The position numbers and the translations under genes were made by a program. A stretch of DNA of 41,358 nucleotides from a virus (taxonomy: Duplodnaviria > Heunggongvirae > Uroviricota > Caudoviricetes). Of the stretch, positions 6,616 to 36,180 are shown piece after piece. A model generated the notes under the pieces. That model ran no database searches, was not told where the DNA came from, and worked only from the letters and a program-made list of their open reading frames with translations. Every line of letters begins with the position of its first letter. Within the stretch, counting starts at the first letter, position 1. The stretch lies in IMG/VR virus record IMGVR_UViG_2740892232_000004; one strand, given 5' to 3'.

Positions 6616-6632
6616 ATTACCTTTCAGGTAAT
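6616..6632. repeat. Palindromic operator-like motif ATTACCT-TTC-AGGTAAT (copy 1)
   Basis: Perfect 7-3-7 inverted repeat in the intergenic region between tailspike start and the LexA-box gene; an ATTACCT half-site also at 6566-6572. Confidence 0.55.
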
Positions 6633-6668
6633 TTGCAAAACGTGCTGGATAGCAAACAAATTATTTGA

Positions 6669-6688
6669 TACTGTATAAATATACAGTT
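6669..6688 (+). promoter_or_regulatory. LexA (SOS) box
   Basis: TACTGTATAAATATACAGTT = CTGT-N8-ACAG with AT-rich spacer, overlapping a TATAAA-like -10; about 20 nt upstream of the ATG at 6708. Confidence 0.7.
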
Positions 6689-6707
6689 ATTGCATGGAGA
6701 AGATAAG

Positions 6708-6965
6708 ATGCAGCAGTATCACTATCCACTGGAAGACGGATTTACCGAAAGGATTCACACGCCGGGAGGCGTCAGGTCACTGGTGGAGGGATCGCACTTG
6801 ATGAAATTACTCCGGGATCTCGATAAGGATGGATTTAATGTCGATGGCCCACTTGCCGAACTGACTGCACTGATTAACTACGTCACCAGCTCACAGATGT
6901 CTATGCAGGATCTGCAAACACATCTCGACTATTGTGCCGAACAATTACGAAAACAAACCCGGTAA
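6708..6965 (+). CDS. Small SOS-regulated antirepressor candidate (stand-alone copy of the BRO-N protein C-terminal domain)
   Basis: ATG with GGAGAAG RBS; residues ~9-80 align to the C-terminal 75 aa of the 8114-8824 protein (shared …PLxxG…IH[ST]PxGV…LMxLL…DG…AELT…DxQTH…Y). Confidence 0.6.
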   Translation: MQQYHYPLEDGFTERIHTPGGVRSLVEGSHLMKLLRDLDKDGFNVDGPLAELTALINYVTSSQMSMQDLQTHLDYCAEQLRKQTR

Positions 6966-6987
6966 ATTTAAAGGCCGCAAGAGCGGC

Positions 6988-7716
6988 CTATCGTTTCGCT
7001 TTGTGCTCGTCCCAGCACGTTTTGCACCATGCCATTAAGCCGTCCGCATTTTGATTATTAGGGTAAAAGCTGGTCCGTTTTCTGCGGACATTACAAATTG
7101 GGCACCACTTCATATGGCGTGTATTCTTTGGGCCATCGAGACACCTTGCACACCACTTAGTCAATCCATCTGGATTTTTTGACGATTTCCGGAATTTGTC
7201 ATATGGAAGGTTTATTCTGCATCGCAAACACTGCTTGCGGCCACTTGAAACTCTGTTAGCTGATTCTTCTTTTGGCGGCGATACAGAAGGTATTCTTGCT
7301 GGCTCTGATACTGCCTGAGGTGCTTTTTTAGATGACTGAGACGATATGTCATCACCAGGGAATCTTCCATGATATGCCGGACGCATTGATACTCCAGGTG
7401 GAAGCTCAGCTGTAAACGGCTTTGGCTGAATCAGTTGCCTCTCTTTTGCTAACTCCTGCTGTTTACAATATGTCTGGATTACCGCACTATCATAAGCAGG
7501 AGGTGCGGAAATATTAGGCGCATTACCTCCAGTTTTTTGAAACTGAGTAGAGGTGTGTTCTATCACCTGTGTACGATTAATCGTTATCTCCCCATCTTCG
7601 GTCTTTATCGTTTTGTTATGATTAACGACCGTACGATCAGAGATCTTAGTCTTGTTCTGGTTGATAACGTAAATAATCACCGCAACCACACCAACAACTA
7701 TCCAGAAAACTTCCAT
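6988..7716 (-). CDS. Membrane-anchored protein with tandem CxxC zinc-ribbon repeats
   Basis: N-terminal TM helix, S/P-rich linker, C-terminal four CxxC pairs with repeated …DGLxxWCxxC; GAGGAAAA RBS. Confidence 0.6.
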   Translation of the reverse strand: MEVFWIVVGVVAVIIYVINQNKTKISDRTVVNHNKTIKTEDGEITINRTQVIEHTSTQFQKTGGNAPNISAPPAYDSAVIQTYCKQQELAKERQLIQPKPFTAELPPGVSMRPAYHGRFPGDDISSQSSKKAPQAVSEPARIPSVSPPKEESANRVSSGRKQCLRCRINLPYDKFRKSSKNPDGLTKWCARCLDGPKNTRHMKWCPICNVRRKRTSFYPNNQNADGLMAWCKTCWDEHKAKR

Positions 7717-7735
7717 TGCTTTTCCTCACAATAAC

Positions 7736-7752
7736 ATTACCTTAAAGGTAAT
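7736..7752. repeat. Palindromic motif ATTACCT-TAA-AGGTAAT (copy 2)
   Basis: Perfect inverted repeat 19 nt upstream of the ATG of the 6988-7716 gene. Confidence 0.55.
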
Positions 7753-7828
7753 ATCTTGCTTTCAGGTGATCAAGCGTTAAACGCCACCAACCAAATACGG
7801 TTGATTTTGATATTTCTCCGCGTTTATC

Positions 7829-7845
7829 ATTACCTTTGCGGTAAA
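7829..7845. repeat. Palindromic motif ATTACCT-TTG-CGGTAAA (copy 3, degenerate right arm)
   Basis: TTACC-N5-GGTAA core conserved; TTGATA -35-like hexamer about 17 bp upstream. Confidence 0.45.
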
Positions 7846-7935
7846 TTTACATCGCACTCCTCTTGTGCCATAGTAATCGGGCACTGGCAAAATCCAGTGC
7901 CGGGATTGGCGTCCCGGGTTACTAAGTGGCGCATA

Positions 7936-7957
7936 CCACGCCAGACGTGGTTTTTTT
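7936..7957 (+). terminator. Rho-independent terminator-like hairpin in a noncoding region
   Basis: CCACG-CCAGA-CGTGG followed by T7; preceded by a 9-bp stem-loop (GGCACTGG…CCAGTGCC) at about 7879-7902. Confidence 0.45.
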
Positions 7958-8113
7958 ATGCGTTAAGCACAGCTATATCCGAATTATGGTGGGCTGGGCA
8001 GGGGTCCGAAAGGACGCCGGTACCACTTAGGCCGGTACGCCAACCTTGTCCAGTTCACCACCAGTAATTGGCGTTGCGGTGGTGATTAAAATCACTAAGT
8101 GGAGATAACCACC

Positions 8114-8824
8114 ATGGCTAATGCTCAAACTTCCATCTTCAAATTTGAATCTGTTAACCCTATCCGTTCCATCATTATCGATGGCCAACCATGGTTTGTA
8201 GCCCAAGACGTTTGTAGTGCGCTGCGTATCCAAAACGTCACCCAAGCACTTGAAAAACTGGATGATGATGAAAGGTCTATGTTCAACATAGGGCATGAAC
8301 ATCGTGCAATTTTTGACAGCCGAGTAAAAGAGATCAACATCATCTCCGAGTCAGGCCTCTACACACTGATCCTCCGCTGCCGCGACGCAGTGACACCAGG
8401 CACTATCCCCTACCGCTTTCGTAAATGGGTTACGGGTGAGGTTCTTCCTCAGATCCGCCGCACCGGAAGCTACATTAAAAACTCGCTCCCGCAGGAAGAA
8501 CGCATAAAGATGGTTGCCGACCAGGTGGCCAACGCCACGGCGTCAGCAGTAATGCAGGCGATGAAGATAGAGAACAAAACCTACAGCGCCCCACTGAATC
8601 CCGGCTACCGCAGCCTGATTCATTCGCCGTCTGGTGTTCTCGGCCTGACGGAGAACTCACTGCTGATGAATCTGCTGAACCAGTTACAGGACGACGGGCA
8701 CGACGTATCGGGCGCGGCGGCGGAGCTGACCACCATGTTCTGCTACATCGTCGGTGTGAGCAAATGCCTGCGTGATATCCAGACCCACGCGGAATACATC
8801 AACGACAAGGCAGGGTTCTTCTGA
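8114..8824 (+). CDS. BRO-N domain antirepressor-like protein
   Basis: ATG with GGAG RBS; N-terminal BRO-N-like segment (FVAQDVCSAL…ISESGLYTLILR…FRKWV); C-terminal domain homologous to the 6708-6965 product. Confidence 0.75.
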   Translation: MANAQTSIFKFESVNPIRSIIIDGQPWFVAQDVCSALRIQNVTQALEKLDDDERSMFNIGHEHRAIFDSRVKEINIISESGLYTLILRCRDAVTPGTIPYRFRKWVTGEVLPQIRRTGSYIKNSLPQEERIKMVADQVANATASAVMQAMKIENKTYSAPLNPGYRSLIHSPSGVLGLTENSLLMNLLNQLQDDGHDVSGAAAELTTMFCYIVGVSKCLRDIQTHAEYINDKAGFF

Positions 8825-8895
8825 CGGGCGGTGGCACAGGGATGTGCCTTTAAATAATTCTGTACAGATTGCAGACTGTGGGTGAATAGCGTACT

Positions 8896-8912
8896 ATTAC
8901 CTTAAAGGTAAA
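8896..8912. repeat. Palindromic motif ATTACCT-TAA-AGGTAAA (copy 4)
   Basis: Directly abuts the AGGAGG RBS of the 8924 ORF. Confidence 0.5.
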
Positions 8913-8923: not shown

Positions 8924-9091
8924 ATGACAGCGTTGAAAAATCGTACTCAGCACAATGAACAAGCCAAGCAATGCTGGGATGTCATTGGAAAAGTTATGCT
9001 TGGCCGCGCAAGCAAAGAGCGCGACAAGGATATGGTTTACCAGACAGGAACATCTTTCAGCGACTTCAAGGCGGCATTTCGCTCCAAATAG
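8924..9091 (+). CDS. Small hydrophilic protein (55 aa), unknown function
   Basis: Strong AGGAGG RBS 6 nt before ATG; below the ORF-track size cutoff; first gene of a two-gene cassette. Confidence 0.45.
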   Translation: MTALKNRTQHNEQAKQCWDVIGKVMLGRASKERDKDMVYQTGTSFSDFKAAFRSK

Positions 9092-9111
9092 AAGCACATC
9101 AGGAGTTTTCC

Positions 9112-9552
9112 TTGAAGTTTAACATTAGAATATCTAATAGTTTTCTACATGGGGAAAGCAACACCCCTTTCGCTGTAGACGGACCTTTCCTTACTGATGA
9201 TGAAATAAAAATCATACAAAGTTTTTTAGAGGATGTTGCCAATGGAAGGGCGCTTGTTGGAAAAAACAAGCCCTCGTGGGTTGATGATAACCATGATAAA
9301 ATTCCCGGCTCAGACAATTATGAGCAAGAGAATTATTGGCATTATCATTGTGGGCCAACATGGTATCCAAACACATTTAAGAATTATACCATTAACTTAA
9401 ATTTCAACCCTGGCGGAAGGCATTCTAATGAATGCATTCATTATGCAAAAAATGATAATGAAATTGTCATTGTTGGATTTTCAAGAGAACACATACCTTT
9501 CCTTTCATCAGATGGAAACAACAATCCGCTTTTTAATGATGAAGAAGAATAG
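9112..9552 (+). CDS. AT-rich moron protein (146 aa from proposed TTG start), unknown function
   Basis: Visibly lower GC than flanks; AGGAG 6 nt before TTG; no in-frame ATG except the overlapping one at 8971; N/D-rich product with single CGP and C-H pairs. Confidence 0.5.
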   Translation: MKFNIRISNSFLHGESNTPFAVDGPFLTDDEIKIIQSFLEDVANGRALVGKNKPSWVDDNHDKIPGSDNYEQENYWHYHCGPTWYPNTFKNYTINLNFNPGGRHSNECIHYAKNDNEIVIVGFSREHIPFLSSDGNNNPLFNDEEE

Positions 9553-9998: not shown

Positions 9999-12473
9999 TT
10001 ATTGCGGAGTGACATCCTGTGGTCGCCACCAGTATGTCTGGTTAAACTCTTTCTTCGAACGTTGCTCCATTTTACGCAAATAACCTGGTGAAAAATACTC
10101 CTGCATCTGGTTAAAGATCATGTGATCGAGAGCCGCCTTCAAGTACCAGAGATTCGCACCTGGCATCAGACCTTTCCCCAGCTTAACCAGATCACCACCA
10201 GTCTGCTCACTCTTCCCTTCCACAGCATTTAACGGTATGCCCTGAGCAATCTTCACTACGTCATCAACCAGACCAGCTACCGGGCCAAGCATCGACGCCA
10301 GCGCGCCGCTTCCGTACCTAGTGTGATCTGACAATAAAAAGTCACCGTAAAGGCCAAGACCACCACCTTTCAGTAGAGCACCAAGCCAAAATTTAGCAGC
10401 ATCTTCTCCTGTCATCTCGCGAGGATTACGACCAGACGCAAGGTCGTTAAGTTGCTGCGACAAAGCGCCAAGAATGGTCGTACTGGCAATAAACGTCGCA
10501 ATATATGCCGCACGCCCACCAGCAGACGGCATACCCATAGCGCGTGACCAGTGACGCATAACCACCGAGATAGGGAACGATTTAAACAGGAAAACACTTC
10601 TCGTTAATTCACCTTTCCATGTTCCACGCTGAATACCAGAACCGGTTATCAGTTGCTCACGTGCTCCCGGTGTAATAACAGCCATATCAACTTCTTCAGT
10701 TACGGCACCGAGCAGTTTACGCATTGCCTCAAATTTCACGCGTTCAGGCTCACCAAGATGTTTAACTGCTGAATCAGGGATACGCATAATGCTTTCCGGT
10801 GTCAGCATCGTATTATTACCGTTCCCCCAGTCCTCCTGTTTCGCCAGCTTCCATACGCTCCAGTCTGTGTCAGTAATCCCTTTGCTTTTCAGGATACGAA
10901 AATCAGAGTCATCGAGGCTACGAAGGTCTGGTGTACGTGACACTACTTCTCCCAGGCTTCCCATCATGGTTACGCCATAGGCGCGCTTGTGCGCATCTGA
11001 CCATGCTGTAAGCCCACTGGCACGCATTACCGCCGTTGCCGCCCAACGAGACACTGACGGCCCCATATTATCCATCGCCCAGCGGTTAACGCTGCCAAGT
11101 AGAGATTCCATCGCCAGACCAGCGCGGCGCGCCCGCGCAAGTTCTGTACGGTTCGTTGGGTCCATAGCTTCAAGCTGGTTGCGGAATAACTGGTTCATTG
11201 GAAGGTTGGTAACCTTCGCAGACAGATACATGGTTCCAAGATCAGAGAACGATGACAGCAACGCGGATCCGAGTCTGCTGGCAACCAGCCAGTTGCGGAT
11301 ATTGTCAGACCATCGCGCGATGTGCGGATTCGCTACAGGCTGTGTCTTTCCGGAAATAAAGTTGTACAGATTCTCTGTGTTGTTCGCCAGCCGCTCGACT
11401 TTACCGGTTTTACTCGGGTTAGCTGTTGCCGTTTCTGCCTTCACCTGATCAAGAAGAGAGCGGAAAACATGATCGGGGTTTGGGCCATATGTTTCCACCA
11501 GTGCAATATCTTTACTGATACCTTCCAGGTGACCGACCATGATTTCCCATAGAGAGCGATCGCCATAAAGTTGCTGATATTGCAGATAGGAATCTGCATC
11601 TTTGAAATGTATCTGTCGTGATGCATTACCACGGTTAGCACGTGCGCCGGAAATTCGCATTCCGGTATCAGTAAGCTTATTCAGCCCACCAGTAGCGATC
11701 GTGTTATAAGCCTCTCCAAGAAATGAAGACAACTCGGCATCGTTCATCAGTTGTCCATCGGCTCGGATATAATATTTGCGATCCAGCTTACCTATAACAT
11801 CGCTAACCCACTTATCCTTTGATACTGCCCCAACCTTTTCCATAGAATGATGTTGAGGGATCCCCCAGTTTTCGAGATAGCCAATGTCCCCACCAGCATC
11901 ATTAAACCGGCGGCGCAGCAGCTCTGTAACTTCTCTCCACGCCTTAGCACCGTTTCTTGCTTTAGCATTGCCAGTATTTTGCCCCCGCATTTCATATACC
12001 AGGTCACGTACGCCCGCTTCATCTTCAAACAGACCAAAAAAGCGAGGATCAACTGCTTCGAATGCCTCCTGCAATTGACTCAATGCATAATCACGGGTGG
12101 CTTTTGTTCTGGATTCAACAGAGAGGAAATTAGATTTACCGTCTGCATTAAAAGCTATAGTACGGTTAAGAGCGCCAAGTTTCCCATCAGCCCCTTGATA
12201 GCTATTGATAAATTTATCCAATCTCTGACGCGCGGCTATAGTGAGAGCCACACGACGTTTCTTTAATGCCGCTTCTCGCTGTAATTCTTCAGATGCCAAT
12301 TGTGCTGCTCGATATAGCCGCTCTGATTCGGAAAGTTGTCTCCACGACATCGGGTCATCACGAGCAATGGAGCGCATATTTCGATAAATGCGGTCTTCAA
12401 TGTTCTGTATTTCTCGCGCCGTTAACGTGCGCTGCGCCGCCTGCTGGACCGCTTGTATACATTCCTGTCTCAT
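9999..12473 (-). CDS. Internal virion / DNA-ejection protein (824 aa)
   Basis: Large ORF in the run of internal virion genes downstream of the tail tubular genes; no catalytic motif recognised. Confidence 0.7.
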   Translation of the reverse strand: MRQECIQAVQQAAQRTLTAREIQNIEDRIYRNMRSIARDDPMSWRQLSESERLYRAAQLASEELQREAALKKRRVALTIAARQRLDKFINSYQGADGKLGALNRTIAFNADGKSNFLSVESRTKATRDYALSQLQEAFEAVDPRFFGLFEDEAGVRDLVYEMRGQNTGNAKARNGAKAWREVTELLRRRFNDAGGDIGYLENWGIPQHHSMEKVGAVSKDKWVSDVIGKLDRKYYIRADGQLMNDAELSSFLGEAYNTIATGGLNKLTDTGMRISGARANRGNASRQIHFKDADSYLQYQQLYGDRSLWEIMVGHLEGISKDIALVETYGPNPDHVFRSLLDQVKAETATANPSKTGKVERLANNTENLYNFISGKTQPVANPHIARWSDNIRNWLVASRLGSALLSSFSDLGTMYLSAKVTNLPMNQLFRNQLEAMDPTNRTELARARRAGLAMESLLGSVNRWAMDNMGPSVSRWAATAVMRASGLTAWSDAHKRAYGVTMMGSLGEVVSRTPDLRSLDDSDFRILKSKGITDTDWSVWKLAKQEDWGNGNNTMLTPESIMRIPDSAVKHLGEPERVKFEAMRKLLGAVTEEVDMAVITPGAREQLITGSGIQRGTWKGELTRSVFLFKSFPISVVMRHWSRAMGMPSAGGRAAYIATFIASTTILGALSQQLNDLASGRNPREMTGEDAAKFWLGALLKGGGLGLYGDFLLSDHTRYGSGALASMLGPVAGLVDDVVKIAQGIPLNAVEGKSEQTGGDLVKLGKGLMPGANLWYLKAALDHMIFNQMQEYFSPGYLRKMEQRSKKEFNQTYWWRPQDVTPQ

Positions 12474-17807: not shown

Positions 17808-20278
17808 CAGAACCCACCAACAGTAAGGCGAGGAATAACGGCAAGAACAGACAGCGGCAACGGATCAAGCTGACGGATTTTTACACGTCCGTTTTTGCCC
17901 CAGTTACTGTCCAGTTTCACTTCTACTTTTCCGGTAGCATCATCAACAGGATCATCGTAGAACTCGAATTCACGCTGTGGATATTCGTACCATTTACCGC
18001 CGGGCGTAGTCGCCCAGATGCCGCGACTGGCATTCACAACCAGAGTAACGGACGGGATCACCTGTTTTTTGTCCAGCAGCGTTTCCTGTCCGTTAATGTT
18101 GATATCCAGTGTTTCGAATTCAGCAGTTATTGGCAGGCCGATGTGCACTACAGCCCCCGGTGATTCCAGCGTGACGGCACATCCGGAAACCACTTTCTGT
18201 GGTTCCACGTTCGCATCAGAGAGAATGTTTACGGTCTGGCCTTCAAGATGAGACAGGCCTCCAAATGTCCGGCGCGCCATCTGCCAGTTCGTGGTGGCCA
18301 CATTCCTGAGGGATGGCGGGACGTTCCTGTTAGCACGAACCACTACAGCGGTATTGCTGGTTACAGAAATAATGTCGCAACGTAATTCTTTTGACACCTC
18401 ATCGCCAGTATCAGGATCAGTTCCGGTATAAGGGAACTGTAGTTGCGCGCCGACATCACTACTGGTGAAGTACGCACCACCAGAAACACTGATTGTATAT
18501 TCCGCGCGGTAATCCCATTCGCCAGAACCACCAGTGATGATCATCGTTCTGTCAGACGTATTTCTTCCATCATAGCTAAGGCCAGAATCAACAAAGAAAG
18601 CATCTTCATCGCTGGTAAATAAACGGCTGGACAGTCGCTCGATGTATCTCACTGTTTGCCCGTTAACGGTTCGGTTAACGACGAAATACACCGCATCTTC
18701 ATTGCCTTCGCTGATACTGCATGTGCTTTCATATTTTCCGGTACTGGATTGTGGTGCCCATGCAAAAACCTGCTGATCACGCAAATAGGTCATCACCAGT
18801 AATTTACCGTCATCACGGATGCAGAAGGCGCTGGAGTAAGGGACTATTGAGAAGCACCAGTCAACAATGCTGTGCTTCTGAAAAAGATGATTGGCAAGGA
18901 TAGTAAGGTCGTTCCCCTGATAGCCGTCAACATCGAATGAGTAGGCCAGATCACGGACAACACTGCCTTTCTCCTGGACGAACAGAGCAATATTCGCCAC
19001 GGCAATTGGTGGGACATTGCTCGAGCCATTTGATCCCTGAGAGCTGAATGCAAATGATGATGGGGTAAGCACTTTGTTCTGGTCGCCAGTGATGACGTAC
19101 TCACCTCCGGAAGTCAGCGCCACCAGCGAACCAACATCAATCAGGTGACGGATCTCATTAACCTGACGCCCGGCATAGGTGTAGATAATTCTGTCGTCAT
19201 CCTGCGTAGGATTGCTTTTGCCAAAATCCTTATAATCCCCAGTACGGCTGGCCCAGATAGTCTGAGGGAACGCAGTCGATGCGGCGAAGTAAAGACGCTG
19301 TTGATAATAAACAACAGTGCCAGGATAACCATTAACACTGTTCCAGGCATATTTAGCCCATTTATAGCTGGCATTATCCTCGCCAACGACCTGCGAAGGG
19401 ATATAGGAAATCACCTCGGCAGTTGCAGTAGTGCCATTTGCAGCAGTGATACGGGCAATGCCAAAACCACTGTGCAGATACTCCCACTCAATGCCAGTAT
19501 CATCATCACCGGATCCGCCCCAGCCATCCCATGATGTGCCTTCTGTATGCGAAGGGCGCAAAGTACCTGTTTTGCCTGCTGTAACGGCGCGATAGTAGTT
19601 ACTGTCTGCACGGCGAATATCGCCAATCGACGTACTCTTACTGGTTTCCCATACAGGTACTGAATCCACTGCAGGCTGTTCCAGATAGAACAATTTGCCT
19701 ACCTGCTCCGCGCCAAAAATAGAGACGCTTGCCGTTAACGTAATTGTCCCGGTGCTGGCGCTGGCATAAACCGTCACTGACTCATCAATATTGATATCTT
19801 CAAATGGCCCGTTCTTCGTTACCACATCAACCAGTTGCCAGTTGTCATGCGCATAGCGACGCAACTCTTTCGGCGGGTATGCCGGATGAACAAGCGTAAG
19901 CACGTCTGCGCTTTGCGTGAATTTAATTCGGAACAGATCGGCTTCAGTATATGGCGTGGCAATTTCATAAATAACATTGCTGCTGTTCAGCACCAACGCA
20001 CCATCTTTGATAACGCGCATGTACTGGTGTCCGAACTCCAGAGCATAGGTCTGAACCGTCGAGAACTGGAACGGGATCAGGCGGCATTTCCGATTTGGGT
20101 ATTTGGCGGCACCGACAAAACGCGTACCAGGTCGATTCTCAACGCCGCCATACTGCCGCACGATAAAGTTATCGCACTTGCGCAATGCCACCTGGTACTT
20201 CGCCATGTCGATACGTCCGTACAACGACGGTCCAATCTCACCACCAGCAAAGCTGGGCTGGATCCAACTGATAGCCAT
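17807..20278 (-). CDS. Tail tubular protein B-like / tail hub protein
   Basis: 823 aa, follows the tail tubular A-like gene with overlapping stop/start; size and position as in T7-type tails. Confidence 0.65.
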   Translation of the reverse strand: MAISWIQPSFAGGEIGPSLYGRIDMAKYQVALRKCDNFIVRQYGGVENRPGTRFVGAAKYPNRKCRLIPFQFSTVQTYALEFGHQYMRVIKDGALVLNSSNVIYEIATPYTEADLFRIKFTQSADVLTLVHPAYPPKELRRYAHDNWQLVDVVTKNGPFEDINIDESVTVYASASTGTITLTASVSIFGAEQVGKLFYLEQPAVDSVPVWETSKSTSIGDIRRADSNYYRAVTAGKTGTLRPSHTEGTSWDGWGGSGDDDTGIEWEYLHSGFGIARITAANGTTATAEVISYIPSQVVGEDNASYKWAKYAWNSVNGYPGTVVYYQQRLYFAASTAFPQTIWASRTGDYKDFGKSNPTQDDDRIIYTYAGRQVNEIRHLIDVGSLVALTSGGEYVITGDQNKVLTPSSFAFSSQGSNGSSNVPPIAVANIALFVQEKGSVVRDLAYSFDVDGYQGNDLTILANHLFQKHSIVDWCFSIVPYSSAFCIRDDGKLLVMTYLRDQQVFAWAPQSSTGKYESTCSISEGNEDAVYFVVNRTVNGQTVRYIERLSSRLFTSDEDAFFVDSGLSYDGRNTSDRTMIITGGSGEWDYRAEYTISVSGGAYFTSSDVGAQLQFPYTGTDPDTGDEVSKELRCDIISVTSNTAVVVRANRNVPPSLRNVATTNWQMARRTFGGLSHLEGQTVNILSDANVEPQKVVSGCAVTLESPGAVVHIGLPITAEFETLDININGQETLLDKKQVIPSVTLVVNASRGIWATTPGGKWYEYPQREFEFYDDPVDDATGKVEVKLDSNWGKNGRVKIRQLDPLPLSVLAVIPRLTVGGF

Positions 20279-25984: not shown

Positions 25985-26073
25985 ATCAATGACTCCGTAC
26001 GCAATTAAATTATTACCAATTTAACCACATATGATTTATTTATCGTAGGTAGTTGACATTTAACGCACAAATT

Positions 26074-26090
26074 ATTACCTTTCAGGTAAC
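26074..26090. repeat. Palindromic motif ATTACCT-TTC-AGGTAAC (copy 5)
   Basis: Upstream of the portal operon; consensus TTGACA -35 hexamer on the plus strand 17 bp upstream of the left arm. Confidence 0.55.
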
Positions 26091-26401: not shown

Positions 26402-26478
26402 TCTCAGCGTTGTGGCATTAGCTCAGTTGGACAGAGCAACCGCCTTCTAAGCGGTTGGTCGCAGGTTCGAATCCTGCA
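26402..26478 (+). tRNA. tRNA-Arg (anticodon UCU)
   Basis: Folded by hand: 7-bp acceptor stem GUGGCAU/AUGCCAC, D-arm GCUC…GAGC, anticodon stem ACCGC/GCGGU with loop CUUCUAA, T-arm GCAGG-UUCGAAU-CCUGC, discriminator G, encoded CCA. Confidence 0.85.
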
Positions 26479-26531
26479 TGCCACGCCAGAATCACGCCTA
26501 AGGACCGTGATGCCAGAAGTTCCAGGTGCTT

Positions 26532-26574: not shown

Positions 26575-26651
26575 CAGCAGGACGCCATTGCGATGACTTC
26601 ATGCTGTAAACCAGTACAGCCACGGAAGGCATAACTCATTGCTTCCAGTTC

Positions 26652-26676: not shown

Positions 26677-26688
26677 AAGGTGAAAATC

Positions 26689-27021
26689 ATGAAAGAGAAG
26701 ACTGCAGCTGAGCGCTATGCCGCAGCTATCAATGCCGCGATGGCGATTGTAAACCTGCGTGAAGAGATTAAAGATCTCCTTGCAATTATCCATAACAACC
26801 TGACATGTACAGAGTTGCTTGGCGGTCAGTACAACGGTGAGGCGGTGAAGGAGGCATTTAAAAATGCCGAGGTAGGAATAATTCCAGCAAACTATGTCAA
26901 GGCTGAATGTGTGCTCCTAAAGGCACGAGTGAGTCTGCATGAAGATCCTGGTAATCTCGGTCGAACTGCAATGCGTTACGTGATAGACGAGTCGAATGCC
27001 AAACACAATCTACCGAAATAA
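26689..27021 (+). CDS. Hypothetical protein (110 aa) on the plus strand inside the morphogenesis region
   Basis: ATG with AAGGTGA RBS; opposite strand to flanking terminase/portal genes. Confidence 0.55.
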   Translation: MKEKTAAERYAAAINAAMAIVNLREEIKDLLAIIHNNLTCTELLGGQYNGEAVKEAFKNAEVGIIPANYVKAECVLLKARVSLHEDPGNLGRTAMRYVIDESNAKHNLPK

Positions 27022-27111: not shown

Positions 27112-28587
27112 TTAAGCATAGGGATCGTAATCTGTGATGGCCTTGCCTTGCTGGTTCTGCTGACCGGGAATTCGCAGACGCTTCGACACAGGGAACGCAA
27201 ACGTCAGCAGTAGCGCATCGCCTTTACCAGGAGAACGCCCAAGTCGCTCTTTGATATCTTCCTTCGGTTCGATAACGATTTTACCGTCCACTCGAACTTT
27301 GTACTCTGCTGCCGACAGGTCGTCCGCTGTTTCCTGGTCATCCAGCATGCCGCCCAGCCTCAGCCATGTCTTGCATGAATTGAACATCTCCCCACGCTTG
27401 TTGAGCATCTGCGGGTCAGTAGACGCGCCACCGAACGGAACAAGTTGCCATGTACGACCCCATCCGTCACCGATTGACTTCAGACCGGTTCCGTAACCGA
27501 AGTCGATGAACACCGCGTCAGCCTGATACTGGTCTTCAAAGTCAGCGATACGCTTCGCCATAATCAGATCGTCGGTAGTCTTGTTGCCAGTCCACAGCAC
27601 CTTACTGTGTAGCCCCTGCCGCAGGTATATCACCGCGTCATCAACGCCTGAATATGCCGGGTCAACACCGATTATCACCGGAGCATGCGCCACCTGCGCA
27701 GCGGTTACCACCCGTTTCATTGCCTCATCAGTAAGACCGGTAGGGATAAACTGCAATTCAGATGCATCAGGGAATATGCCGCGCACACGGATTTTAACGA
27801 AGTCGCTGTCTTCCCCGTAGTCATCAACCCATTTCTGCAACTGCTGTTTGTTAGTGCCTTCCACCGTTCGGCTGTCAATCTGCGCAGTTTTCCAGCGGTG
27901 TTTATATTTGCGGAAACATTCGCGGAAACGTCCGGTATTACGCGTCGGGTTTCCGAACGCCACCCAGATAATCTCAGTGTCTTCGTCCGTTAGTGCACCC
28001 TCGGCAACTTCCCACACCAGATCCGCAATGTTCGACGCTTCATCGAATACCACGATGATGCGTTTGCGCTCGTTGTGTAGTCCGGCGAATGCCTCAGTGT
28101 TGTGCTCAGACCAGGGGATTGCGTCAGCTCGCCACCGCTTGTCGTGTCCAGGATCATTGCTGTACATCGCGGTAGCGGTACAGGTAAACCAGTCTTTCGT
28201 GATAGCAAGGTTCGACCACTTGATAATTTCCGGCCAGGTCTTCGTTCGTAGCTGGTTGTCGGTGTTGGCGGTCACCACGACCTTACAATCCTCGCAAGTG
28301 GACATGCCCCAGTTGATCAGCATTGAGATGAATGCGGATTTACCAATACCGTGACCCGAAGCACGTGCCAGCATAAGCGGCTGATAGCGCGTCTCTGGAT
28401 TCTGCAGGTGATCACGTATCTCTCGGAACGCATCAGCCTGCCACTGACGTGGGCCGGTAGCATGTGCCAGTTCAGTCCCCTCTTCCCCCCACGGGAACGC
28501 ATAGAGGGCATAGCCAAGCGGATCGTGAGTGAACCCTGCAATATCCTCGATCAACTGCTCTTCAGGAGATAACGCTGTATCTGTCAC
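27112..28587 (-). CDS. Terminase large subunit
   Basis: 491 aa; Walker A-like SGHGIGKS; acidic nuclease-type C-terminal half; start overlaps small-subunit stop. Confidence 0.85.
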   Translation of the reverse strand: MTDTALSPEEQLIEDIAGFTHDPLGYALYAFPWGEEGTELAHATGPRQWQADAFREIRDHLQNPETRYQPLMLARASGHGIGKSAFISMLINWGMSTCEDCKVVVTANTDNQLRTKTWPEIIKWSNLAITKDWFTCTATAMYSNDPGHDKRWRADAIPWSEHNTEAFAGLHNERKRIIVVFDEASNIADLVWEVAEGALTDEDTEIIWVAFGNPTRNTGRFRECFRKYKHRWKTAQIDSRTVEGTNKQQLQKWVDDYGEDSDFVKIRVRGIFPDASELQFIPTGLTDEAMKRVVTAAQVAHAPVIIGVDPAYSGVDDAVIYLRQGLHSKVLWTGNKTTDDLIMAKRIADFEDQYQADAVFIDFGYGTGLKSIGDGWGRTWQLVPFGGASTDPQMLNKRGEMFNSCKTWLRLGGMLDDQETADDLSAAEYKVRVDGKIVIEPKEDIKERLGRSPGKGDALLLTFAFPVSKRLRIPGQQNQQGKAITDYDPYA

Positions 28588-29177
28588 TGATTACCATCCT
28601 GACGTTCTTTGAGTCGCTTCCTGGCTGCTGCTATGCGATCAGCAATTGTCACATTCACATTAACATCCAGACGTTCTTTGAACGCGTTGACATCAACATG
28701 CTTACCAATCAGCTCAAGGTTCTTCACCTTGTCAGGCCATTTAATTTTTTTGAGGATTGTCTCTATCGAATCCTCGTTCATGTTCATGATGGTCGATGAC
28801 AGATCAAAGCCACTAAGCGTAGTGCGCCAGATTTTCGGCCACTCACGGATTGGTTTAAGGCTCCCATCGTCGTTGAGGATGTCGATCACGTCCATCTGGT
28901 CGATCTCCACCAGGCGCATGAGAACGTAATCAGCACTGACGCGCATTCGTTTGTTGCGCTCCTCCATCAACTCGGCAATCCGTTTTTGAATGCGTTCATC
29001 GCGCATCATGACACTGGCTTTAACTGCCGCTGTATTTGGGGAGAATCCTGCGTTAATCGCTGCCTGAGTCTGGTTTTCAGGCGTTTTGATGTATGACTGG
29101 CAATAAGCCTCCTGCATTGCTGTTAGTGGCTTAAATTGCGTTGATTTGCGTTTATAGGTTTTAGGTTCAGCAGGCAT
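28584..29177 (-). CDS. Terminase small subunit
   Basis: Immediately upstream of and overlapping the large subunit; start set at the internal Met pair because the track ORF 5' end runs through a terminator hairpin. Confidence 0.6.
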   Translation of the reverse strand: MPAEPKTYKRKSTQFKPLTAMQEAYCQSYIKTPENQTQAAINAGFSPNTAAVKASVMMRDERIQKRIAELMEERNKRMRVSADYVLMRLVEIDQMDVIDILNDDGSLKPIREWPKIWRTTLSGFDLSSTIMNMNEDSIETILKKIKWPDKVKNLELIGKHVDVNAFKERLDVNVNVTIADRIAAARKRLKERQDGNQ

Positions 29178-29196
29178 CATAACCACCGTGGTAATA

Positions 29197-29213
29197 GTTA
29201 CCGTTGTGGTAAT
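29197..29213. repeat. Palindromic motif GTTACCG-TTG-TGGTAAT (copy 6) within tandem ACTATTACCAC direct repeats
   Basis: TTACC-N5-GGTAA core just upstream of the terminase small-subunit start. Confidence 0.45.
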
Positions 29214-29290: not shown

Positions 29291-29302
29291 GTGACATGTC
29301 AC
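29291..29302. repeat. 12-bp perfect palindrome GTGACATGTCAC (copy 3 of 3)
   Basis: Lies between a TTAATA -35-like and a TAGATT -10-like hexamer on the minus strand, about 40 nt upstream of the terminator at 29222-29249. Confidence 0.6.
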
Positions 29303-29535
29303 ACTATTAATTTCGTTTCATGCCAGCCTTTAGTCACCCAGCATTGCGAGTCACCATTACACGGGCATGAATTAACTGGAACTCTCTCGCCGCACTTACC
29401 GCAACATTTTCTGCTGATCGATTTTATACGCCCGCGCACGCGTGCATCATCCTGGCGGATCAGTAACGCGATGTACTCGGCCATTTCATAGGGATCGCGA
29501 CCAGGGCGCCGGGCGGCGCAGTTCCGCGCCAGCAT
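29299..29535 (-). CDS. Small Cys-rich (zinc-finger-like) protein; candidate late-gene regulator
   Basis: ATG with AGGAG RBS (track ORF extends to a GTG at 29646); C-terminal CCGKCG…CPC…C cluster; last gene before the late promoter-like region. Confidence 0.45.
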   Translation of the reverse strand: MLARNCAARRPGRDPYEMAEYIALLIRQDDARVRGRIKSISRKCCGKCGERVPVNSCPCNGDSQCWVTKGWHETKLIV

Positions 29536-29629
29536 TTCCTGCTCCTGCTTATCCAGCACCAGTTCAATTTTGCGCTCACCGGCGGCGGACTGCCGAGCGC
29601 GCTGCGCGGCTTTGCGTTCTGCGGGGGAT

Positions 29630-29751
29630 TTAGCCACGAATCGCACTCCACGCCAGATTGATTAATGACTCCCAGGTAATATAAACCCGGATACCAGCAG
29701 CCAGGCCGAAACCAATCACCATGGCATAAAGCAGAGCGTTGCACTTGTTCA
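29630..29751 (-). CDS. Small hydrophobic membrane protein (40 aa)
   Basis: GGAGGTG RBS then ATG abutting the stop of the upstream gene; single TM helix. Confidence 0.4.
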
Positions 29752-32675: not shown

Positions 32676-33020
32676 TCAGAACTCTTCGATGTTCCAGCCA
32701 CCACCTGCTTTCTTTGGTTTAACCGTTACCCCGATGATTCGGAACGGATACTGATCTGCGGCGACTTTGGTTTTCACCCTGGCGTCGTCGGTCCAGAAAC
32801 CTTTCACTTCGTGCAGTTCCATCTCTCCGGTGGCGAGCATCACAGCGAAATCGGGCGTATAGAACGTGTTGTCAGCTAACCGCAGCTTGATACCCTCGAA
32901 TCGATACCAGGCGATTTCCCCTGCACGTTTACGCTGCTCAAGGTGCTGGCAATACGCAGATTCTGTTTTGTTCATCTGGCCTGTTTTGAGTCGACCAAGA
33001 GCCTGTATCTGTTTTCTCAT
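32676..33020 (-). CDS. DUF1064-like putative nuclease-fold protein
   Basis: 114 aa with …YTPDF…E…K pattern; start codon abuts palindrome copy 7, whose AGGT arm sits in the RBS position. Confidence 0.55.
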   Translation of the reverse strand: MRKQIQALGRLKTGQMNKTESAYCQHLEQRKRAGEIAWYRFEGIKLRLADNTFYTPDFAVMLATGEMELHEVKGFWTDDARVKTKVAADQYPFRIIGVTVKPKKAGGGWNIEEF

Positions 33021-33022
33021 GA

Positions 33023-33039
33023 TTTACCTCTAAGGTAAT
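33023..33039. repeat. Palindromic motif TTTACCT-CTA-AGGTAAT (copy 7)
   Basis: Two nt upstream of the 32676-33020 gene start codon. Confidence 0.55.
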
Positions 33040-33084
33040 TAAAAACCATATAAGACACGAAATCAATAGAGTTTAGAATATTTT

Positions 33085-33101
33085 GTTACCTTGTAGGTAA
33101 T
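33085..33101. repeat. Palindromic motif GTTACCT-TGT-AGGTAAT (copy 8)
   Basis: Between a weak terminator after the P-like gene (about 33111-33135) and copy 7. Confidence 0.55.
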
Positions 33102-33137: not shown

Positions 33138-33914
33138 TTACTTGATAAATCCTGCCGCCTTTCCCCGCCTGTATTCCTCCATCAGCCACTGCGCCGGTGT
33201 TATTCCCCCAAGGGTGGCGGCGTTAGGCATGCACCCGAAACTTCGCCCTGGTGGATGGTAAACGTCTCTCCCTGTGTCCGGAGGTGTACTCATGGGCTCT
33301 GGCTTTGCCTGTATGCTGATCACCGGATCGGGTATCTGCTGTCCGGAAGCCACCTTTTTCGCCCAATCATCGAGCAGCCTGCGCGCGTGTTTCTCAACCT
33401 CACTCTCGCTAAGCTGGCGCTGATACATTGCACGACGGGTATCACATACGACCCAGTACATAACCGGATGCCGCCACGGGAATCTTTCGGGACCACCAGG
33501 ATATAAACTTTTTTCCTTGCTGTACCGGTGAAACTCCGCCATCACATCGTCAATGGTGACGCCAAGAACCATCTTGCTGTCTTTGCACCACTTGATGAAT
33601 TGCCCTGGCGACGGCCAGAACGGAGATTCACTGGCGCGGGCGTGGCGCATACCAGCGTTAACCTGTTCCATTGTAGTGATCCCATTCTCCAGAAACGCAA
33701 GCATCCATTGCTTACGGAATTCATTAAGTTTGTTCTGCTCCCTTATGGTCGAAACGCTTGCAGGAAATGCAGCCTGTAACTGGACAAATAGTTCATTGAA
33801 AATTCTAGCAACCTGCTCCTTTTTGCCATTGCTGTCACGCCGCTCTTCATGCACAGCAACACCATGCTCACGTAAGCGATCGTACTCATTGAGAAGTTCT
33901 GGAGTTGATTTCAT
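33138..33914 (-). CDS. P: Replication protein P-like (helicase loader)
   Basis: Central region …FPAS…QNKLNEFRKQWMLAFLENGITTMEQVNAGMRHAR…PFWPSPGQFIKWC closely matches lambda P as I recall it. Confidence 0.8.
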   Translation of the reverse strand: MKSTPELLNEYDRLREHGVAVHEERRDSNGKKEQVARIFNELFVQLQAAFPASVSTIREQNKLNEFRKQWMLAFLENGITTMEQVNAGMRHARASESPFWPSPGQFIKWCKDSKMVLGVTIDDVMAEFHRYSKEKSLYPGGPERFPWRHPVMYWVVCDTRRAMYQRQLSESEVEKHARRLLDDWAKKVASGQQIPDPVISIQAKPEPMSTPPDTGRDVYHPPGRSFGCMPNAATLGGITPAQWLMEEYRRGKAAGFIK

Positions 33915-34716
33915 CCCACACCCCTTCTATCCAGTCAGTGTTATTCCAGTCAAGCTCATCGCTTTTCCCGGCATTTTTTGATTTTCCCCTGATATGATTT
34001 ACGTGCCTGGCGAATTTTTGTTCCCACTGAACCTGCGTGAACACTTTGCCCTCAGCCATCCAGTAATCCCGGAATGCAGCAAGTTCAGCAGGTGTAAATT
34101 CCGGTTCCGGCAGGGCCGTTCCCCACAGCGCAGCACGCCGCCGAAAATCTGGCGACGGTAGCCAGCCATCTGTCATCGGAAATTTCCCGATGGGTTCACT
34201 CAGGCCATCCAGAAATTCAGGTTCTGCCACCTGCAACGGCGTACTGTTCGCTTCACTGGTCGGAGCACCCTCGCGCACGTGCGCTATGTGTGGGGTTTTA
34301 TATATATCTTCCTCTTCCTCTTCCTCTGGTAACTCCTTTTGTAACGCTGTTGGCGTTACTTTTTGCGTTACTCGTTTTCTATGCTCTGCCACTCTTCTAT
34401 TCGTAAGTGCACGTTTTTTCGATGATTCTCCATTATGTCGCTCAAAGTTTGGAAGAATTAGTTTGCCGTCATGATAAGCAAGCCATCCGACGCTAATGAG
34501 GGCGTCAGCAAATCCTGTAATAAAAGCGAGTCTATCAAGTACTCCTTTTGTAACGCTGCCAGCGTTACCGTCTATTGTTTGCTGGTCAGCCCATGCCCAT
34601 ATACGAACCAGCTTTCCAAGAACAGCATCTGGATCAATACCCAGAATTTCTGCTATCTGAAAAATTTCAGGTTTATCAGGAGTGATAACTTCAACCTTAA
34701 TCCAGCTGCTTGCCAT
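33886..34716 (-). CDS. Replication initiation protein O-like (replisome organiser)
   Basis: Upstream of and overlapping P; ATG with GAGGGG RBS (track ORF starts at GTG 34734); acidic EEEEEE linker. Confidence 0.6.
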   Translation of the reverse strand: MASSWIKVEVITPDKPEIFQIAEILGIDPDAVLGKLVRIWAWADQQTIDGNAGSVTKGVLDRLAFITGFADALISVGWLAYHDGKLILPNFERHNGESSKKRALTNRRVAEHRKRVTQKVTPTALQKELPEEEEEEDIYKTPHIAHVREGAPTSEANSTPLQVAEPEFLDGLSEPIGKFPMTDGWLPSPDFRRRAALWGTALPEPEFTPAELAAFRDYWMAEGKVFTQVQWEQKFARHVNHIRGKSKNAGKSDELDWNNTDWIEGVWDEINSRTSQ

Positions 34717-34891
34717 AGGTTTCCCCTCTTGCACTCTTTAGTGCACAAGCAAATTCATTACGATGGCGGTTGGCGCTATTCATTGCACATTCAACACATG
34801 TTCCGTTCAGAACATACCTTTCAGAGAGATGGCCGTGACGGCACCGCTTTCCTGTGAAATAGCGATTTAACCCGGCTTTTGCGGCCTCCAT
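34697..34891 (-). CDS. Small zinc-finger-like protein (65 aa), cII-position
   Basis: CRHGH…CVEC motif; lies between the cro-like and O-like genes; weak RBS. Confidence 0.4.
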   Translation of the reverse strand: MEAAKAGLNRYFTGKRCRHGHLSERYVLNGTCVECAMNSANRHRNEFACALKSARGETYGKQLD

Positions 34892-35057
34892 TCTGGTTAC
34901 TATCTTCAATTTTTCCGCCCCTTTTTGTTATTGATATTGGCTATTTTGCACAATTGGAAAATTTGATCAACCAGATTTGGTTTTTTATTACCCTTAAGGT
35001 GCGAATAGATATGAAAAGACCGCCGGATGGCGGTCTACAGAGGGTTGTGGCTGGATA

Positions 35058-35288
35058 TCATGAGTAGAAGAAGTATGCCAGTTCTGCTTTTGAGCGCAGC
35101 CATTGTCTTGTTTTACAGGCTTTAAAAAGCCCATTCATCAATACTTTACCTGGCATTTTGCGCTTGCCTGTTAAGTGAGTCTGGATATAGTGACTCGTCG
35201 TTCCGGCTTCCTGTGCGAAGGCTTCACGCTCATCCGGAGTAAGTGCAAGCCAGTGCTTTTTGAAATCGAAATGTCCGTTATCGCTCAT
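35058..35288 (-). CDS. Cro-like HTH regulator
   Basis: 76 aa, HTH-like segment, first gene of the replication operon, divergent from the CI-like gene. Confidence 0.6.
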   Translation of the reverse strand: MSDNGHFDFKKHWLALTPDEREAFAQEAGTTSHYIQTHLTGKRKMPGKVLMNGLFKACKTRQWLRSKAELAYFFYS

Positions 35289-35354
35289 AGCTATTGCCTG
35301 ATATTTATTTCAGATAATAAATATTCACCCATAAGGTAACAAAAATCAAGGATA

Positions 35355-35388
35355 GTTACCTATGAGGTGCATTTACCTGTTGGGTAAT
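35355..35388. promoter_or_regulatory. Immunity-region operator cluster (degenerate TTACC-N5-GGTAA copies)
   Basis: GTTACCT-ATG-AGGTGCA and TTTACCT-GTT-GGGTAAT, plus an AGGTAAC half-site at 35334-35340, between divergent cro-like and cI-like starts. Confidence 0.5.
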
Positions 35389-35442
35389 ATTGCTTTAAAT
35401 TGAATCATCTACTGATTCATATATGAGGCGATTTTCCAGAAA

Positions 35443-36027
35443 ATGAAAAGTATCCAGGACGTCCGCAGGCAAAATCTCAACGACTTGATCGACCGTGAAT
35501 TCAATGGTGTTCAGACGCGGATGGCAGAAAAACTTGGAACTCAGGCAAATCTGGTAAACCGCTGGGCTCTTGGCAAGAAGGTTATCGGCGACCAGGTTGC
35601 ACGAAAAATTGAAGCTGCCGCCAATAAACCCCGTAACTGGCTTGATATTGATCGTTCGCTTTCTCAGGAGGGTTTTCAGCCTGTCGGCCCGAGCGATATA
35701 GGTCAGCTGGCGGCTCACAACCTGGAACGCTGGATGAGCGAAAGCCGCGACCTTTCAACACAGGGAAAACTTCACCGCGCATCCGGCGTCGCCCAGGTGA
35801 CAATCAGCCGCCTGTTAAACAATGAGGTCAGCGTTTCCATTTCCACCCTGGAGAATGTTGCATCCGCATTCGGGCGTCACGGATATGAACTACTGATTCA
35901 CCCGCACGACCCTGCGACTATCAACTATGACCGCTCACGCTACGCATTGTTACCCGAAACCGAGAAAGCAAAGATCGAAAGTTACATTGAATTTGTCATC
36001 AACCAGAACGAAAAAAGCAAACAATAA
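35443..36027 (+). CDS. CI-like repressor with two HTH-like segments and no LexA-type (S24) autocleavage domain
   Basis: 194 aa; HTH-like regions around residues 25-45 and 105-135; no GDSM / Ser-Lys dyad motif; no obvious SD upstream of ATG. Confidence 0.65.
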   Translation: MKSIQDVRRQNLNDLIDREFNGVQTRMAEKLGTQANLVNRWALGKKVIGDQVARKIEAAANKPRNWLDIDRSLSQEGFQPVGPSDIGQLAAHNLERWMSESRDLSTQGKLHRASGVAQVTISRLLNNEVSVSISTLENVASAFGRHGYELLIHPHDPATINYDRSRYALLPETEKAKIESYIEFVINQNEKSKQ

Positions 36028-36048
36028 AACTATAGTTTTCAGTAAGTA

Positions 36049-36072
36049 AGCCGCCTCATGGCGGCTTTTTTA
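36049..36072 (+). terminator. Rho-independent terminator after the cI-like gene
   Basis: AGCCGCC-TCAT-GGCGGCT followed by T6. Confidence 0.7.
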
Positions 36073-36083
36073 TTGCCAGATAG

Positions 36084-36100
36084 ATTACCTTACGGGTAAT
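36084..36100. repeat. Palindromic motif ATTACCT-TAC-GGGTAAT (copy 9)
   Basis: Upstream of the early recombination operon. Confidence 0.55.
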
Positions 36101-36145
36101 TTTTTTAACTCATATCTATTGACACCAAACCAAATAAGCATAATT

Positions 36146-36162
36146 ATTACCCCAACGGTAAC
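36146..36162. repeat. Palindromic motif ATTACCC-CAA-CGGTAAC (copy 10, degenerate)
   Basis: TTACC-N5-GGTAA core; extra AGGTAAC half-site at 36169-36175 overlapping the RBS of the 36181 ORF. Confidence 0.45.
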
Positions 36163-36180
36163 AGACCGAGGTAACAAGTT

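Follow-up and report, generated by a model that had tools for sequence, protein, structure and literature searches.

Dispersed palindromes in an Escherichia coli prophage of the genus Uetakevirus as probable operators of its immunity repressor

Background

Can a single short palindrome govern most of the operons of a prophage and, if so, through which protein? The question arises from a stretch of viral DNA of 41,358 nucleotides (IMG/VR record IMGVR_UViG_2740892232_000004), called the window in what follows, in which the palindrome TTACC-N5-GGTAA recurs between genes. An original prediction, made from the letters of the window, had placed copies at the start of "essentially every operon" and had offered two readings: one dimeric regulator, CI-like or Cro-like, acting on all operons directly, or a transcribed hairpin that sequesters the ribosome-binding site. 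We argue that the palindromes are, with high probability, operators of the prophage's own immunity repressor Rep, a homologue of the Rep protein of phage SPC32H, dispersed over the promoters of most operons. This reading is built on the excess of the motif, its placement at gene boundaries, the annotation of phage epsilon15, the homology of Rep, of its antirepressor Ant and of a LexA box, the conservation of the sites in the genus, and the sites of an outgroup, the Pseudomonas siphophage PseuP_224. The palindrome is genuine and was rightly placed, yet it is not new: it is annotated in the type phage of the genus, epsilon15, and is ordinary for this phage group, so that it represents no new kind of biology.

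The window contains a prophage of E. coli that belongs to the genus Uetakevirus (epsilon15/phiV10 type, with Salmonella phage epsilon15 as type member) and is 95-98% identical to the Escherichia phages vB_EcoP_ZX5, HEMP4, TL-2011b, phiv142-3 and phiV10. Up to about base 1161 the sequence is that of the E. coli chromosome, with yfgI and yfgH, a segment present in 5422 of 5426 complete E. coli genomes, and the junction with the prophage lies near 1162. At its other end the window breaks off at the integrase start codon, so that the attachment site and the Rep site next to int fall outside it.

Results

An over-represented palindrome at gene boundaries

Exact matches to TTACCNNNNNGGTAA (TTACC-N5-GGTAA) number 11 in the window, starting at 6617, 7737, 7830, 8897, 26075, 29198, 33024, 33086, 35373, 36085 and 36147; in 100 dinucleotide-preserving shuffles of the window the mean was 0.00, and no shuffle contained even one. 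This is the genome-wide count against shuffled controls that the original prediction had itself proposed as a check, and it comes out in favour of a true repeat; every coordinate listed there was reproduced, its 35355 being our site 35356. With at most one mismatch the search returns 13 sites, adding 29180 and 35325, against 0.53 expected; where two mismatches are tolerated in the longer form ATTACCTNNNAGGTAAT, 9 sites are found and 0.06 would be expected. Two further copies with two mismatches lie in regulatory gaps near good copies, one at 35356, between 35325 and 35373, the other at 34988, which brings the total to 15 sites. When all palindromes with arms of five bases and spacers of 0 to 12 were ranked without bias, TTACC-N5-GGTAA came first with its 11 copies; the runner-up, with 6, is the same palindrome offset by one base. 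Among the matches listed in a scan of viral contigs for ATTACCTNNNAGGTAAT, there are many contigs of about 40 kb with several copies.

All 15 sites lie at gene boundaries, and the search of the window found no copy within the 17-kb block of structural genes or in the host flank 1-1161. The leader of the lysis operon (3087-3392) was searched and also contains none: the motif stands at most operons, and the phrase "essentially every operon" slightly overstates the case. The greedy model of open reading frames for the window was rejected, its spurious frames covering real regulatory gaps, and the curated annotation of epsilon15 was used instead. There, 11 of 11 exact copies fall inside the 6.6% of the genome that is non-coding (P ~1e-13).

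Annotated repressor sites in the type phage

The records of epsilon15 (AY150271.2, by its depositors, and RefSeq NC_004775) carry seven 'protein_bind' features whose bound moiety is 'repressor', and all seven are TTACC-N5-GGTAA. They are placed ahead of terS, of the portal operon and of the nin-like operon, in the gap between the ant-like and tailspike genes and, three of them, to the left of the repressor gene. The same search applied to this genome finds 14 intergenic sites, including three right of the repressor gene and one ahead of the lysis genes: the annotation is thus incomplete. The genome of phiV10 has 14 sites with at most one mismatch, none of them annotated in its record. The window shares with epsilon15 the genus, the core of the motif and the syntenic places of the sites; it differs in adding three sites at accessory cassettes (7737, 7830 and 8897) and in lacking the lysis site.

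The epsilon15 paper is reportedly Kropinski et al. 2007 (Virology 369:234), and a consensus ATTACCWDWWNGGTAAT is said to have been published for this phage; the latter is unconfirmed, a full-text search of the literature having returned no paper carrying that string. A full-text search for the half-sites together with 'repressor' and 'phage' gave unrelated papers only, the LF82 paper among them containing primers only.

Repressor, antirepressor and Cro-like protein

The proteins and the control element that bear on the identity of the binder are the following.

35443..36027, plus strand: repressor gene rep, 194 amino acids; matches PDB 5D50_A (SPC32H Repressor) with E 3.5e-42 over residues 1-190, that is, full length
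6708..6965, plus strand: antirepressor gene ant, 85 amino acids; matches PDB 5D50_E (Anti-repressor protein) with E 4.1e-47
6669..6688: LexA (SOS) box TACTGTATAAATATACAGTT, near-consensus, ahead of ant; kept in all seven genomes compared below
35058..35288, minus strand: Cro-like gene, 76 amino acids, divergent from rep; PHROG 35, transcriptional repressor

According to Pfam, Rep consists of an N-terminal Cro/YdaS-like helix-turn-helix (HTH) domain and a second domain, HTH_3, with no S24 peptidase domain. When the E. coli/Enterobacter clade is set against those of the Salmonella and of the Klebsiella phages, Rep is 43-45% identical (53% in the N-terminal domain), and the segment NLVNRW, a putative recognition helix, is invariant in 7 of 7 genomes. 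The Cro-like protein is 58-100% identical across the same genomes, with a conserved HTH segment AGTTSHYIQ(T/V)HLT, and probably binds the same sites as Rep. A weaker LexA-like sequence, CTGT-N8-ACAG, is present at 26604-26619, about 60 bp 5' of the gene 26680-27021.

A Rep-Ant-LexA switch has reportedly been described for SPC32H by Kim and Ryu (2013, J Virol) and by Kim et al. (2016, PNAS; PDB 5D50, 5D4Z). In the summary given by a citing paper, the Rep of SPC32H is a tetramer on palindromic DNA, where the pairs of DNA-binding domains are drawn from different dimers; the dimeric form binds weakly, and tetrameric Ant breaks the Rep tetramer. The window resembles SPC32H in having homologues of Rep and Ant and a LexA box ahead of ant, and the SPC32H genome has the same motif at the same places, although its Rep is only about 43% identical to that of the window. 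The notion of one phage regulator survives, with the CI-like protein as its best candidate; to judge by SPC32H, this protein probably forms a tetramer, its DNA-binding domains arranged in two pairs, and not the dimer first proposed. In the ZX5 paper, in which operators were not mapped, overexpression of the repressor cut the transcription of holin and endolysin by 99.97-99.99%; the ZX5 repressor is 99.5% identical to the Rep of the window.

Conservation in seven genomes and in an outgroup

Seven genomes were compared: the window, phiV10, epsilon15, SPC32H, Enterobacter phage Tyrion, Salmonella phage 66FD and Klebsiella phage BUCT711. In every one of them TTACC-N5-GGTAA outranks all other palindromes, with 8-11 exact copies per genome, and they come from four host genera (E. 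coli, Salmonella, Enterobacter and Klebsiella). Taken together they hold 94 sites, or 77 distinct 23-mers, in which the triplets ACC and GGT are 99-100% invariant, the flanking TT/AA are 91-95% conserved, the outer A/T is conserved in 66%, and the five central base pairs are variable and A+T-rich. The arms of these sites contain 28 changes, none of which is compensated in the opposite arm. The arms thus keep their sequence and not their pairing, which is the signature of recognition by a sequence-specific protein and not of RNA pairing.

The positions of the sites are syntenic, and their spacings are kept, in genomes whose surrounding sequence has diverged. The classes are:

terS: two sites, 18 bp from each other
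portal leader: one site
ant / tailspike: one site
lysis leader: one site, variant TCACC
before int: one site, variant GGTAT, outside the window
left of rep: two sites at a distance of 62 bp (63 bp in BUCT711); the Salmonella phages have a third at 76 bp
right of rep: a triple with spacings of 17 and 30-31 bp
past the terminator of the cro-like gene: one site, 337 bp from OR1, in the E. coli and Enterobacter phages
nin-like operon: two sites, again at a distance of 62 bp

The densest clusters lie on both sides of rep, which is flanked by five to six sites as in classical immunity regions. The lysis leader is the exception to the synteny: its site, present in the other six Uetakeviruses, is absent from 3087-3392 of the window. 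In the other genomes this site adjoins a divergent O-antigen modification gene, which the window lacks, and its target is therefore uncertain: it may serve that gene rather than the lysis genes. The sites also bear on gene starts. In phiV10, terS is annotated as 41-715, from a start codon upstream of both operators, so that the coding sequence swallows them; in epsilon15 and Tyrion it starts just past the proximal operator, and the equivalent start in the window is the ATG at 29177 (gene 28584-29177, minus strand).

The outgroup, PseuP_224, has a cI that shares with Rep the N-terminal domain only (39-41% identity) and has another C-terminal part. Its genome contains four copies of TTACC-N4-GGTAA against 0.26 expected, at 10906-10945 and 11768-11820, two on each side of cI and nowhere else; the spacer is one base shorter than in the Uetakevirus site, and the half-site is identical. 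This ties the half-site TTACC to the Rep-type DNA-binding domain, and it is by their dispersal that the sites of the Uetakeviruses stand out. Moraxella phage Mcat9, whose protein has 36% identity to the N-terminal domain of Rep, was set aside as a second outgroup: the TTACC/TAACC-like half-sites of its divergent control region are too degenerate to lend more than weak support.

The sites of the window

The 15 sites are listed below in the order of the window, with the candidate promoters beside which they stand; these promoters were assigned by reading the sequence and by consensus scans.

6617..6631: operator TTACCTTTCAGGTAA, exact, in the divergent ant / tailspike control region; syntenic with the epsilon15 annotated repressor site 19895-19911
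7737..7751: operator TTACCTTAAAGGTAA, exact, 21 bp 5' of the ATG of the minus-strand gene 6988-7716 and 93 bp from 7830; candidate promoter on the minus strand, the arm TACCTT lying 17 nt past TTGATC
7830..7844: operator TTACCTTTGCGGTAA, exact, adjoining the -10 of a putative rightward promoter, TTGATT (7801), 18 nt, TATCAT (7825-7830)
8897..8911: operator TTACCTTAAAGGTAA, exact, ahead of an accessory cassette, adjoining the -10 of a putative promoter, TTGCAG (8869-8874), 17 nt, TACTAT (8892-8897); AGGAGG and then an ATG follow downstream
26075..26089: operator TTACCTTTCAGGTAA, exact, between the minus-strand portal operon and a putative rightward promoter, TTGACA (26053-26058), 17 nt, TACCTT (26076-26081); syntenic with the epsilon15 annotated repressor site 2931-2947
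29180..29194: operator, one mismatch (TTACCACGGTGGTTA on the minus strand), ending 2 nt ahead of the terS ATG (29177), with GGTGG as ribosome-binding site; the annotation of Tyrion has a ribosome-binding site inside the homologous arm
29198..29212: operator TTACCGTTGTGGTAA, exact, 18 bp from 29180, just past the early-right terminator and adjoining a -10-like TACTAT (minus strand); syntenic with the epsilon15 annotated repressor site 12-27
33024..33038: promoter-proximal operator of the nin-like operon, exact, on a putative minus-strand promoter, TTGATT (33066-33061), 17 nt, TTTAAT (33043-33038); kept in 7 of 7 genomes
33086..33100: distal operator of the nin-like operon, exact, 62 bp from the proximal one and directly past a terminator; syntenic with the epsilon15 annotated site 35906-35922
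34988..35002: degenerate operator TTACCCTTAAGGTGC, two mismatches, just past the terminator of the cro-like gene and 337 bp from OR1; counterparts with one mismatch, likewise 337 bp away, at phiV10 33112 and Tyrion 35365
35325..35339: OR1-like operator, one mismatch, in the spacer / -35 of a putative leftward cro-like promoter, TTGTTA (35342-35337), 17 nt, TATTAT (35319-35314)
35356..35370: OR2-like operator, two mismatches, 31 bp from OR1 and 17 bp from OR3
35373..35387: OR3-like operator TTACCTGTTGGGTAA, exact, closest to the repressor gene
36085..36099: distal OL-like operator, exact, immediately following the rep terminator, with the proximal operator 62 bp away
36147..36161: proximal OL-like operator, exact, adjoining the -10 of a putative rightward promoter of the recombination operon, TTGACA (36119), 17 nt, AATTAT (36142-36147); syntenic with epsilon15 annotated repressor sites

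Two of the assignments first proposed for these sites need amendment. Sites 7737 and 7830 had both been given to a zinc-ribbon gene, but 7830 belongs to the putative rightward promoter of the isrK/C4 RNA and Bro-N cassette described below; and the site at 26075, rightly placed upstream of the portal operon, also overlaps a putative divergent promoter toward a tRNA-Arg gene.

Promoters and spacing

A sigma-70-like promoter appears to be overlapped by seven sites: 36147, 33024, 7830, 8897, 26075, 7737 and 35325. The contact takes a recurrent form. At five sites (36147, 33024, 7830, 8897 and 29198) a -10-like hexamer ends on the first T of TTACC, although no -35 was found for the TACTAT of the distal terS site 29198. 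At two others, 26075 and 7737, the arm TACCTT lies 17 nt past a good -35, the TTGACA at 26053-26058 and the TTGATC of the minus strand; the former is conserved in other genomes. The layouts TTGACA-17-AATTAT (36119-36147) and TTGATT-17-TTTAAT (33066-33038, minus strand) are kept in 7 of 7 genomes. No convincing sigma-70 promoter was found, trying hexamers by eye, at 6617 in the ant or tailspike direction, or in the late-operon leaders.

The distal partners 36085 and 33086 and the post-cro site 34988 lie directly past terminator hairpins, so that the order of the unit is terminator, distal operator, promoter, proximal operator. Spacings between paired sites in the window are 31, 62, 62 and 93 bp, or 3, 6 and 9 helical turns, plus 17 and 18 bp; the 62-bp spacing and the promoter overlaps are kept in 7 of 7 genomes, with one pair at 63 bp. 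We infer that the spacings of 31, 62 and 93 bp fit cooperative or tetramer-bridged binding.

Accessory cassettes and a second conserved box

Downstream of the candidate promoter 7801-7830, Rfam finds two matches above the gathering score on the plus strand, the Hfq-binding small RNA isrK (7881-7957) and a C4 antisense RNA (7982-8065); a gene with a Bro-N domain (8099-8824, plus strand) stands just 3' of them. The cassette is like the immI (c4-ant) region of phage P1 and would be a second, RNA-controlled antirepressor-like cassette besides the Ant of SPC32H type. Behind site 8897 stands another accessory cassette (8924-9552, plus strand), whose homologous gene in TL-2011b is named a YafO-family type II toxin; it has no Pfam match, and among the PHROGs it matches a family of unknown function only. 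A tRNA-Arg(UCU) gene (26412-26488, plus strand) lies 3' of the conserved candidate promoter TTGACA-17-TACCTT (26053-26081) and is transcribed away from the portal operon.

A second box, CATATGTGGTT, is conserved on the minus strand at 3147-3157, 6577-6587, 26023-26033 and 33044-33054. With at most one mismatch it has 4 copies against 0.64 expected. It stands in the lysis, tailspike and portal leaders; a copy with two mismatches, CTTATATGGTT, lies in the nin promoter spacer, and in the lysis leader of phiV10 the box is a full palindrome, AACCATATATGGTT. Its distance past the Rep site is fixed at 41 nt (portal), 29 nt (tailspike) and 32 nt (lysis) in the 7, 7 and 5 genomes that carry the respective site. 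The box may act as a late promoter or be bound by a late activator, and the gene 29299-29646, just upstream of terS and classed among the PHROGs as 'transcriptional regulator', is a candidate for its regulator.

Discussion

Operator, hairpin or relic?

At the level of sequence, the window presents every feature of an operator regulon of the epsilon15/SPC32H type: the motif, Rep, the synteny and spacing of the sites (with the lysis leader as exception), and Ant with its LexA box. Several points weigh against reading the palindromes as Rep operators that control the prophage throughout. Direct control of every operon is not strictly true, since a site is missing from the lysis leader. As binders, Rep and the Cro-like protein are inseparable by sequence, both having conserved helix-turn-helix segments. 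Consensus promoter matches are no commoner in these regions than in shuffles, and the weight thus rests on the conservation of the layouts across genomes. Finally, the portal and tailspike sites lie off any obvious sigma-70 promoter, 41 and 29 nt upstream of CATATGTGGTT; at such late operons the effect could be repression, looping or something else, direct repression being plausible.

It might be conjectured instead that the palindromes act as transcribed RNA hairpins, hiding the ribosome-binding site or making transcription pause or terminate. Every site can indeed be folded as a hairpin of 5-9 bp, with z-scores of -1.3 to -4.0 against shuffles, and at 33024 and 29180 the 3' arm carries Shine-Dalgarno bases: the right arm GAGGTAA of site 33024 is the Shine-Dalgarno sequence of the ATG at 33020, and GAGGTAAatcATG is kept there in 7 of 7 genomes. 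However, the hairpins are weak (-3.2 to -6.9 kcal/mol), and the absence of compensation in all 28 arm changes runs against a conserved stem. At the five sites where the last base of the -10 in a promoter consensus match is also the first of the palindrome, transcription would begin within the palindrome, and the RNA would be without the 5' arm. Many sites are distal partners upstream of promoters; the stems are not followed by a T-run, and the real terminators are separate, neighbouring hairpins rich in G+C, with a 13-pair stem with 3 GC pairs at 36177-36144, overlapping site 36147, as a marginal terminator-like exception. No Rfam family matches at any site. The sequestering hairpin that the original prediction had kept as its alternative thus finds no support, and we consider an RNA function very improbable. 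Its remark that the AGGT arm can double as a Shine-Dalgarno sequence holds at two sites only, 33024 (GAGGTAAatcATG) and 29180 (GGTGGTTAtgATG), where the overlap is more naturally explained by a very short leader than by sequestration.

If the palindromes are bound by a protein, this could be one other than Rep: the Cro-like protein alone, the regulator encoded at 29299-29646, or a host factor. The Cro-like protein is better conserved than Rep and has its conserved HTH segment, and the gene 29299-29646, besides its PHROG class, is in the position of a late regulator. Yet the repressor is named as the binder by the depositors of epsilon15, the sites are most crowded beside rep, PseuP_224 has the same half-site around cI while sharing only the Rep-type N-terminal domain, and conservation in phages of four host genera speaks against a host-specific factor; a binder that excludes Rep is accordingly unlikely. 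Shared use of the sites by Rep and Cro is no true rival and belongs with the Rep operators themselves. There is also the possibility that the motif is a compositional or chance repeat, or the functionless relic of a mobile repeat, to which we give hardly any credence: only the A+T-rich flanks favour it, whereas 0 of 100 shuffles had any exact copy and the syntenic positions and spacings are kept despite diverged surroundings. Arm sites of the integrase, sites of the integration host factor (IHF) and a pac site were ruled out as well, the motif being symmetric, present at no fewer than eight loci and densest around the repressor gene.

A proposed mechanism

With the palindromes taken as Rep operators, the following course of events can be proposed. 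In the lysogen, Rep would bind its 17-bp sites through pairs of N-terminal HTH domains, and seven of the sites would directly block RNA polymerase. The operator would begin on the last base of the -10 at 36147 (recombination), 33024 (nin-like), 7830 (isrK/C4/Bro-N) and 8897 (accessory cassette); at 26075 (tRNA-Arg promoter) and 7737 (gene 6988-7716) the arm TACCTT would itself be the -10; and operator 35325 would sit in the promoter spacer of the cro-like gene. Second sites 31, 62 or 93 bp away would allow one Rep tetramer, or cooperating Reps, to occupy two operators from one face of the helix. Induction would proceed as in SPC32H: DNA damage would take LexA off the box ahead of ant, and Ant would then bind Rep and strip all the sites at once. 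Early, accessory and several late units would be freed together, not through a cascade in the manner of lambda.

Likeness to other regulatory systems

That the design departs from the lambda cascade, as was first suggested, is borne out by the 9 of 15 sites outside the immunity region, though the departure is not new. The operators of the P1 repressor C1 are dispersed over the genome, and P1 also couples a c4 antisense RNA and an ant module. In P1, as with the stoperators of mycobacteriophages L5/Bxb1, one immunity repressor has many sites throughout the genome and not only beside its gene, and the window has in common with P1 the presence of a C4-like RNA. PMC1934351 contrasts the few symmetric operators of lambdoid phages with the multiple asymmetric ones of mycobacteriophages and some others. 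The sites of P1 and of L5/Bxb1 are asymmetric, whereas those of the window are symmetric and stand on or next to promoters; the repressor families are unrelated. Stoperators, moreover, lie within transcription units in one orientation, while the sites of the window lie at promoters or past terminators; the terS pair, being past a terminator, could act as a roadblock.

With the CI/Cro system of lambda the window shares divergent repressor and cro-like genes, a triple of operators on one side and a pair on the other, and the overlap with promoters. It differs by its sites outside the immunity region, by a Rep that has a second HTH domain in place of the S24 autocleavage domain, and by induction through an antirepressor. 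The KorA/KorB system of the IncP plasmid RP4, as set out in PMC2665229, also repeats a symmetric operator at the promoters of many operons and binds it cooperatively; but RP4 is a plasmid and not a phage, its proteins and motif are unrelated, and the likeness is one of analogy only.

Significance

The practical uses are modest: the 15 sites form a map for chromatin immunoprecipitation (ChIP), footprinting and reporters, and they help to correct gene starts, such as that of terS in phiV10, and to flag accessory genes likely to be silent in the lysogen. We also put forward, tentatively and as something that may well prove wrong, that operator specificity is frozen throughout the genus because the operator has been copied onto at least eight control regions (14-15 sites per genome), and that the Rep site and CATATGTGGTT form a composite module at the late operons. 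If this were true, immunity would extend to every member of the genus, in contrast with lambdoid phages and their many immunity types; newly acquired cassettes (isrK/C4/Bro-N, toxin-like, tRNA-Arg) would have to gain a Rep site in order to be tolerated; and Rep would gate a putative late activator site at CATATGTGGTT. As for the Rep operators themselves, they would explain how a common family of E. coli and Salmonella prophages is kept silent and switched on: by one repressor on most promoters and one antirepressor under SOS control.

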